64,000 nucleotides of DNA from a plasmid. This document shows, one piece after another, positions 51,931 to 53,130 of the stretch. The stretch lies in assembly GCF_054482595.1 (NCBI RefSeq), contig NZ_JBTHVH010000004.1. One strand, written 5' to 3'. A model generated the notes under the pieces. That model was given only the letters and a program-made list of their open reading frames with translations. It was not told the origin of the DNA and did not search any database. Position 1 is the stretch's first letter. Every line of letters starts with the position of its first letter. Made by a program: the position numbers and the translations under genes.

Positions 51931-53130
51931 GTGAAACCCAACAGACCCCTGATCGTAATTCTGAGCACTGTCGCGCTCGACGCTGTCGGCATCGGCCTGA
52001 TTATGCCGGTGCTGCCGGGCCTCCTGCGCGATCTGGTTCACTCGAACGACGTCACCGCCCACTATGGCATTCTGCTGGCGCTGTATGCGTTGATGCAATT
52101 TGCCTGCGCACCTGTGCTGGGCGCGCTGTCGGATCGTTTCGGGCGGCGGCCGGTCTTGCTCGTCTCGCTGGCCGGCGCTGCTGTCGACTACGCCATCATG
52201 GCGACGACGCCTTTCCTTTGGGTTCTCTATATCGGGCGGATCGTGGCCGGCATCACCGGGGCGACTGGGGCGGTAGCCGGCGCTTATATTGCCGATATCA
52301 CTGATGGCGATGAGCGCGCGCGGCACTTCGGCTTCATGAGCGCCTGTTTCGGGTTCGGGATGGTCGCGGGACCTGTGCTCGGTGGGCTGATGGGCGGTTT
52401 CTCCCCCCACGCTCCGTTCTTCGCCGCGGCAGCCTTGAACGGCCTCAATTTCCTGACGGGCTGTTTCCTTTTGCCGGAGTCGCACAAAGGCGAACGCCGG
52501 CCGTTACGCCGGGAGGCTCTCAACCCGCTCGCTTCGTTCCGGTGGGCCCGGGGCATGACCGTCGTCGCCGCCCTGATGGCGGTCTTCTTCATCATGCAAC
52601 TTGTCGGACAGGTGCCGGCCGCGCTTTGGGTCATTTTCGGCGAGGATCGCTTTCACTGGGACGCGACCACGATCGGCATTTCGCTTGCCGCATTTGGCAT
52701 TCTGCATTCACTCGCCCAGGCAATGATCACCGGCCCTGTAGCCGCCCGGCTCGGCGAAAGGCGGGCACTCATGCTCGGAATGATTGCCGACGGCACAGGC
52801 TACATCCTGCTTGCCTTCGCGACACGGGGATGGATGGCGTTCCCGATCATGGTCCTGCTTGCTTCGGGTGGCATCGGAATGCCGGCGCTGCAAGCAATGT
52901 TGTCCAGGCAGGTGGATGAGGAACGTCAGGGGCAGCTGCAAGGCTCACTGGCGGCGCTCACCAGCCTGACCTCGATCGTCGGACCCCTCCTCTTCACGGC
53001 GATCTATGCGGCTTCTATAACAACGTGGAACGGGTGGGCATGGATTGCAGGCGCTGCCCTCTACTTGCTCTGCCTGCCGGCGCTGCGTCGCGGGCTTTGG
53101 AGAAATTCTTCAAATTCCCGTTGCACATAG
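51931..53130 (+). CDS. tetA(A): Tetracycline efflux TetA(A), variant C-terminus
   Basis: 399 aa from GTG start (KPNRPLIVILSTVALDAVG...); ends ...LRRGLWRNSSNSRCT instead of ...LRRGLWSGAGQRADR. Confidence 0.9.
   Translation: MKPNRPLIVILSTVALDAVGIGLIMPVLPGLLRDLVHSNDVTAHYGILLALYALMQFACAPVLGALSDRFGRRPVLLVSLAGAAVDYAIMATTPFLWVLYIGRIVAGITGATGAVAGAYIADITDGDERARHFGFMSACFGFGMVAGPVLGGLMGGFSPHAPFFAAAALNGLNFLTGCFLLPESHKGERRPLRREALNPLASFRWARGMTVVAALMAVFFIMQLVGQVPAALWVIFGEDRFHWDATTIGISLAAFGILHSLAQAMITGPVAARLGERRALMLGMIADGTGYILLAFATRGWMAFPIMVLLASGGIGMPALQAMLSRQVDEERQGQLQGSLAALTSLTSIVGPLLFTAIYAASITTWNGWAWIAGAALYLLCLPALRRGLWRNSSNSRCT

Follow-up and report, generated by a model that had tools for sequence, protein, structure and literature searches.

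The two tet(A) copies and their flanks

The window analysed here is a 64,000-nucleotide stretch of plasmid DNA (contig NZ_JBTHVH010000004.1 of assembly GCF_054482595.1) that holds a complete and a truncated copy of tet(A). The initial annotation had described the complete gene as carrying a replaced C-terminal tail and the 5'-truncated copy as keeping the canonical tail, and the open reading frame listing and direct reading of the sequence bore out both the coordinates and the sequences. The features of the two copies are as follows.

51175..51825, minus strand: tetR(A) repressor gene, divergent from tet(A) (open reading frame; translation starts MTKLQPNTV)
51931..53130, plus strand: complete tet(A) with the variant tail; GTG start, 399 codons plus stop (open reading frame listing, direct reading)
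53101..53130, plus strand: variant tail, codons 391-399 (RNSSNSRCT) plus stop, coded by antisense ISCR2
52229..53102, plus strand: right copy of the inverted repeat, tet(A) nt 299-1172, 874/874 match to the left copy
36711..37584, minus strand: left copy of the inverted repeat (pairwise comparison of the copies)
36683..37584, minus strand: second tet(A), lacking everything before nt 299 (codon 100) and ending in the canonical tail (open reading frame listing, direct reading)
36683..36712, minus strand: canonical tail, codons 391-399 (SGAGQRADR) plus stop (direct reading)
35767..36651, plus strand: Tn1721-module pecM, encoding an EamA/DMT transporter (annotated in p3M-23 and NZ_CP142404.1 as EamA family transporter, WP_000058717.1)

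The complete gene is full length, and tetR(A), annotated as WP_001493764.1 in the near-identical records p3M-23 and NZ_CP142404.1, is transcribed divergently from it on the opposite strand. The C-terminal end of the complete product is ...GLWRNSSNSRCT; read directly up to the stop, the translation ends ...LRRGLWRNSSNSRCT. The truncated product finishes with the canonical ...GLWSGAGQRADR beside pecM, and its translation up to the stop ends ...LRRGLWSGAGQRADR. The truncated gene (36683..37584) and pecM (35767..36651) converge, and the annotated link between them holds. In PLSDB, 3135 plasmids have matches across the canonical tet(A)-pecM junction. At position 36602 (pecM codon 279), near the PecM C-terminus, the window has CCT (Pro) where p3M-23, NZ_CP142404.1 and all top PLSDB matches have CGT (Arg); this change appears to be a private SNP.

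The two tet(A) copies lie 14.6 kb apart and are identical over 874 of 874 bp, without a mismatch and in inverted orientation (37584..36711 on the minus strand corresponds to 52229..53102 on the plus strand). They part after nt 1172, which is the middle base of codon 391, such that residues 1-390 are shared and residues 391-399 differ. Both tails are nine residues long.

The 5' end of the truncated copy adjoins a transposon remnant with the following features.

37585..37622, no strand assigned: 38-bp terminal inverted repeat, bla end of Tn2/Tn3 (GGGGTCTGACGCTCAGTGGAACGAAAACTCACGTTAAG, read directly), abutting tet(A) nt 299
37585..38150, minus strand: Tn2 remnant with the inverted repeat and the blaTEM 3' part, truncated by IS26 at 38150/38151 (sequence comparison)
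38151..38970, plus strand: IS26, with six further identical copies elsewhere in the window (sequence comparison)

The 5' end of the fragment was thus made by a Tn2/Tn3 inverted repeat. The open reading frame at 37732..38163 is the C-terminal part of TEM. The Tn2 remnant is 100% identical to that of the plasmid pSYCC6-1_3 and 99.8% identical to the Tn3 of pTEM135_005215. A reciprocal Tn2 IRL::tet(A) nt 303 junction, built in silico, was absent from PLSDB; its sole full-cover match consisted of two pieces in a different position. Another copy of the 38-bp terminal inverted repeat at ~14704..14741, in the upstream multiresistance mosaic, points to a further Tn2 remnant. The first 21 kb of the window form a mosaic of which no PLSDB record covers more than 78%, and no PLSDB record is identical to the window as a whole, the nearest being pKC25-20925_262kb (NZ_CP142404.1).

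The variant tail and the encoded pump

The following features lie at and beyond the 3' end of the complete gene.

53097..53102, plus strand: TTGGAG, 6-bp microhomology (canonical tet(A), the junction in the window and the intact ISCR2 of pMR0617aac compared with one another)
53103..53403, minus strand: ΔISCR2 5' remnant of 301 bp, made up of tnp nt 1-183, whose start codon lies at 53285, and the 118 bp preceding tnp (blastn against intact ISCR2/ISVsa3)
53397..53702, minus strand: truncated lysR, 101 aa (open reading frame; LysR family regulator WP_001255015.1 in pMR0617aac, p3M-23, NZ_CP142404.1 and p22453_1)
53730..54944, minus strand: floR (open reading frame; AMRFinderPlus floR at 100% in NZ_CP142404.1)
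55161..56045, minus strand: DUF3363 (virD2-like) open reading frame of the ISCR2-floR unit (open reading frame listing, comparison with NZ_CP142404.1)
56076..56907, minus strand: second ISCR2 remnant, 3' part of tnp (3' 832 nt), ending abruptly at 56907

The complete gene had been described as running into the Δ-lysR/floR unit. It is joined to that unit, but the 301-bp ISCR2 remnant (53103..53403) lies between the two and encodes the tail. The junction joins tet(A) nt 1172 to the antisense 5' end of ISCR2 (tnp nt 183), which is followed by lysR and floR. Using blastn, window positions 53094..53403 were matched to 10429..10738 of pMR0617aac, within its intact ISCR2/ISVsa3, at 99.7% identity and on the strand opposite tet(A). 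The minus-strand open reading frame at 53061..53285 opens MPHVAARTASRDRDTGRY..., like the ISCR2 transposase. The TTGGAG motif is common to tet(A) and ISCR2 exactly at the crossover point. Judged from these sequences, the tet(A)::ΔISCR2 junction is most probably the product of an illegitimate, microhomology-mediated joining event. Further downstream, window positions 55849..56907 are 100% identical to 8900..9958 of pMR0617aac. Since this second ISCR2 copy is incomplete as well, the floR unit is flanked by two partial ISCR2 pieces in the same orientation. The neighbour of the second remnant beyond 56907 is IS1006, according to the annotation of NZ_CP142404.1.

A 501-bp query spanning the variant junction was searched against PLSDB and was fully covered at 100% identity in 1054 plasmids, which excludes a sequencing error at the junction. 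The hosts included Escherichia, Klebsiella, Salmonella, Plesiomonas, Shewanella and others, and among the carriers were the IncF plasmid pMR0617aac and the IncC plasmid p22453_1. The replaced tail is therefore a catalogued, old and very common allele that is already known and not novel. A discussion of the C-terminal nine residues of Tet(A) was not found in the literature searched.

The floR-tetAR-strAB-sul2 module has long been described for IncA/C plasmids; those of one study were chosen for the presence of floR and tetA, described there as florfenicol and tetracycline resistance genes (PMC3155540). In p22453_1 (NZ_CP032395.1), the order is sul2-strA-strB-tetR-tetA-lysR-floR-DUF3363-ISCR2. 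The window shares with this plasmid tetR, tet(A), the variant tail, ΔISCR2, lysR, floR and DUF3363 leading into ISCR2, with the junction 100% identical, and only 2 of 2625 bases differ over window positions 50876-53500 (tetR codon 182 and tet(A) codon 93, the latter Thr in the window versus Ala). In contrast, upstream of tetR the window has pRiA4b-ORF3, a recombinase, ISKpn19 and qnrS1, where p22453_1 has strB-strA-sul2, and the downstream ISCR2 is truncated at 56907 in the window, unlike in p22453_1. The window accordingly carries the junction-lysR-floR-DUF3363-ISCR2 part of the ISCR2-floR-tetAR module (IncC ARI-B type) without strB-strA-sul2 upstream of tetR. Position 52207, in tet(A) codon 93, is ACG (Thr) in the window and in p3M-23, and GCG (Ala) in the IncC-type module and in pKC25-20925_262kb. 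It lies 22 bp upstream of the inverted repeat and therefore moves together with the gene's 5' portion. The combination of Thr93 with the variant tail is common by itself.

The variant-tail protein scored 891.1 bits against the NCBIfam model NF012193 for Tet(A), above the curated NCBI cut-off of 840 bits, and the canonical-tail version scored 891.5. The Tet(A)/(B)/(C) family model stops at residue 384, short of the swapped residues, which lie past the last hydrophobic stretch (...WAWIAGAALYLLCLPALRRGLW) and past the conserved family core. AMRFinderPlus reported tet(A) at 100% identity at the corresponding place in NZ_CP142404.1. The exact 399-aa protein with either tail occurs in at least 1000 contigs each and bears the name Tet(A) in NCBI and UniRef. 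The complete gene should encode an ordinary TetR(A)-regulated class A tetracycline/H+ antiporter, working like any tet(A). Its prevalence and annotation suggest that the variant tail is without functional consequence, and the at least 1000 contigs in which the exact protein is named Tet(A) suggest that it confers tetracycline resistance.

The tet(A)v profile consists of I5R, V55M, I75V, T84A, S201A, F202S and V203F relative to RP1 tet(A), and cloned, widely distributed tet(A) variants raised the tigecycline MIC 8- to 16-fold, with V55M as the main contributor (PMC10745318). The Tet(A) of the window has R5, M55, V75, A84, A201, S202 and F203, which is this complete seven-substitution profile of reduced tigecycline susceptibility, together with A93T and without S251A. 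The tigecycline-linked substitutions were already described; they sit in other parts of the protein and do not depend on the tail.

A 16.4-kb segment in opposite orientations

The inverted repeats bound a segment whose orientation differs between the window and other plasmids. The segment and the blastn matches of the window to one of these plasmids, the IncHI2 plasmid p3M-23 (NZ_OP970992.1), are listed below.

36711..53102, no strand assigned: 16,392-bp segment, the two repeats included, that is reversed with respect to the common arrangement; 14,644 bp of it (37585..52228) are unique
30710-37584 against p3M-23: reverse, 99.96%
36711-53102 against p3M-23: forward, 100%
52229-59102 against p3M-23: reverse, 99.985%

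The segment carries ΔblaTEM, IS26, the dfrA14-aadA1-blaOXA-10-cmlA-arr-2 integron, intI1 and IS26, as well as qnrS1, ISKpn19, tetR and the 5' part of tet(A). An open reading frame for a serine recombinase (resolvase/invertase family) lies within it at 49484..50056 (minus strand), beside ISKpn19, and is annotated in many plasmids as belonging to the ISKpn19/qnrS1 region. When a 24.5-kb query was searched against PLSDB, window positions 36711..53102 were matched as a single 16,392-bp piece at 100% identity in a group of plasmids (H52-H60), and at least nine plasmids, p3M-23 included, carry this segment in the other orientation. Because the segment is reversed in those plasmids, their complete tet(A) has the canonical tail and pecM. 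The order in p3M-23 is floR-lysR-ΔISCR2-variant tail-Δtet(A)-Tn2 inverted repeat-ΔblaTEM-IS26-integron, continued by IS26-qnrS1-ISKpn19-tetR-complete tet(A)-canonical tail-pecM. In p3M-23 and at least eight others, the backbone flanks are thus as in the window (99.96-99.985%) and the segment is 100% identical, but its orientation is opposite and the tails are exchanged.

The three-piece blastn pattern places both breakpoints inside the repeats, with both flanks conserved. The IncHI2 backbone genes bordering the region are alike in p3M-23 and NZ_CP142404.1, and no IS26 ends coincide with the inversion breakpoints. Long, identical inverted repeats bound the segment and a reciprocal isomer with the same flanks exists, as expected for a repeat-mediated inversion. 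Collectively, these comparisons show that the window and the p3M-23-type plasmids are inversion isomers, one reciprocal crossover apart. The crossover was probably RecA-type homologous recombination. It may have occurred anywhere within the 874-bp repeats and is not assignable to the last nine codons of tet(A), where the initial annotation had placed the recombination; the event that distinguishes this locus is the inversion of 16,392 bp. A crossover inside the repeats necessarily exchanges the two tails. Recombination did place the two 3' ends, as annotated, but the tail junction itself was not made here, given its 100% occurrence in 1054 plasmids.

The Tn1721 tet module has the order tetR-tetA-pecM (reference X61367 as cited in PMC6872532). 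The window's tetR(A)/tet(A) are of the same sequence type (ASF at residues 201-203), and the canonical tail and pecM are both present. However, they adjoin the truncated copy only, and the complete gene lacks them. A contiguous tetR-tetA-pecM module is absent from the window and present in the inversion isomer p3M-23.

The annotated split of a single Tn1721 tet module at this locus, by recombination within the last nine codons of tet(A), would fit the parting of the tails at codon 391 and the attachment of one tail to pecM, but it is refuted as good as completely by the 874 identical, inverted bases over which the copies overlap, which mean that they are not complementary halves, by the identity of the codon-391 junction across plasmids of many types, which makes it older than the locus, by the Tn2 insertion or deletion end at the other end of the fragment, and by relatives that carry the reciprocal combination with identical sequence.

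Invertible segments that switch protein C-termini are known from the R64 shufflon and from the tail-fibre gene inversions of Gin, Cin and Min. The likeness is formal, in that inversion of a segment swaps the 3' end of a constant gene body. Unlike in those systems, the repeats in the window consist of 874 bp of plain tet(A) sequence, which fits general homologous recombination, and one of the "alternative" ends is an insertion sequence remnant. It is highly improbable that the inverted tet(A) copies act as a reversible RecA-driven flip-flop, with mixed populations and alternating C-termini and downstream contexts. If they did, the downstream contexts would alternate between convergent pecM and antisense ISCR2/lysR/floR, and a measurable effect on tet(A) expression, pump stability and the tetracycline/tigecycline MIC would be possible. 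Each inversion state keeps exactly one complete tet(A), and the flip is therefore expected to be phenotypically silent.

Frequency of the two arrangements and direction of the inversion

The stretch diagnostic of the common isomer (Tn2 inverted repeat-Δtet(A)-variant tail-lysR) was found in 69 PLSDB records at more than 80% cover, the best 40 of these 69 as single pieces at 100%. It also tops the list of complete E. coli genomes, with at least 24 further rows there, and occurs alone in the IncF plasmid pSYCC6-1_3, which has intact tnpR-blaTEM-1 and no second tet(A). The corresponding stretch of the window (Tn2 inverted repeat-Δtet(A)-canonical tail-pecM) was contiguous in one PLSDB record only, NZ_CP142404.1, and in none of the complete E. 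coli genomes. Thirty seeming full-cover PLSDB matches to the window stretch were rejected as two-piece joins with Tn2 beyond tetR rather than at the junction, and the E. coli candidate pTB222 was rejected because its canonical tet(A) is complete and preceded by IS26.

The single matching record, the IncHI2A plasmid pKC25-20925_262kb of K. pneumoniae, has the window's arrangement and is collinear with it over 20998..63682, diverging beyond 63682 (after the IS26 at 62863..63682). Over 42.7 kb, the two are separated by 13 SNPs and a 2-bp indel; among the differences, the K. pneumoniae plasmid has Ala at tet(A) codon 93 and cmlA1 in place of the cmlA5-type bases of the window. The rare isomer is hence present in at least two non-identical sequences. 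At the cmlA cassette SNPs 41853, 41924 and 42831, the window agrees with the cmlA5 of p3M-23, and pKC25-20925_262kb is annotated as cmlA1. These differences, despite the shared rare orientation, are compatible with independent inversions or with later recombination.

We give a probability of roughly 0.7 to an explanation that combines an old ISCR2-derived tail with an inversion isomer of a common IncHI2-type region. An old illegitimate joining at the 6-bp microhomology would have linked tet(A) nt 1172 to the antisense ISCR2 5' end beside lysR-floR, and this junction forms the tet(A) 3' end in the widespread floR-tetAR(-strAB-sul2) module. A Tn2 end cuts the second, inverted tet(A) short at nt 299. 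One reciprocal homologous crossover in the 874-bp repeats would then have flipped the 16.4-kb segment and swapped both 3' ends. Plasmids of the common form carry the canonical tail and pecM on the complete gene and the ISCR2 tail and floR on the fragment; the window is the reverse.

The direction of change was probably from the common isomer to the window isomer, which parsimony favours but does not prove. It is supported by pSYCC6-1_3, where the common junction set occurs with intact tnpR-blaTEM-1 and without a second tet(A), and whose Tn2 remnant is 100% identical to that of the window, and by the failure to find a window-type record with intact blaTEM in PLSDB. The repeats hold no informative site, and the two SNPs that separate the IncC-type module fall outside them, at 51281 and 52207, so that neither helps to polarise the exchange.

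The opposite order, in which the window-type arrangement is primary, is unlikely but has a plausible ancestor. In pTEM135_005215 (NZ_CP092976.1), two complete inverted tetR-tet(A) modules lie at 4737..6692 and 22581..24533 as a repeat of ~2.2 kb (also in the two similar plasmids H50 and H51); one has the canonical tail and pecM and the other the ISCR2 tail and floR. Inversion in such plasmids would be invisible except via the tails. From an ancestor of this kind, a deletion reaching from a Tn2/Tn3 inverted repeat into the tet(A) copy with the canonical tail, and then a second deletion, by IS26 within Tn2, would give the window, and the p3M-23 type would be derived from it by inversion. All three plasmids are collinear with the window, in pTEM135_005215 on both sides, and their qnrS1-side copy has the variant tail, so that the window-type arrangement could have come first, by deletion. 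In pTEM135_005215, qnrS1-ISKpn19-tetR-tet(A) already leads into the variant tail and floR, and the Tn3 IRR lies 2.47 kb from nt 299 of the canonical tet(A) copy. About 30 plasmids have a Tn2 IRR just past the tetR of a canonical tet module, and the absence of the reciprocal insertion junction from PLSDB also fits a deletion. However, the Tn2 remnant matches the blaTEM-1-type sequence of pSYCC6-1_3, which has the common arrangement, at 100% and shows a mismatch to the Tn3 (blaTEM-135) of pTEM135_005215. Moreover, the arrangement known with intact tnpR-blaTEM-1 is the common one, which is also far more widespread, and a window-first history requires at least three events rather than one.

It is considerably less probable that the 16.4-kb segment owes its orientation to an assembly artefact or to an arbitrary pick of two co-existing isomers. 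Perfect inverted repeats that exceed short-read inserts leave the orientation ambiguous in short-read graphs, and the window arrangement is very rare in databases. Against this, a second, non-identical record has the same orientation, and 874 bp is trivially bridged by long reads; that record, NZ_CP142404.1, was deposited as a complete circular plasmid.

The RNSSNSRCT tail is neither a new tet(A) allele nor damage, but a marker of the floR/ISCR2-linked lineage of the gene. The significance beyond annotation is small, as the inversion is the only locus-specific event and is an ordinary rearrangement for a resistance plasmid. The window also carries seven IS26 copies, each 820/820 identical and in both orientations (6794..7613, 9717..10536, 13034..13853, 16989..17808, 38151..38970, 44786..45605 and 62863..63682), which offer many further substrates for deletion, inversion and translocatable unit formation. 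Inverted duplicate fragments of resistance genes mean that multiresistance regions can exist as inversion isomers, and such isomers can mislead assembly, plasmid typing and inference on the mobile element to which a gene belongs.
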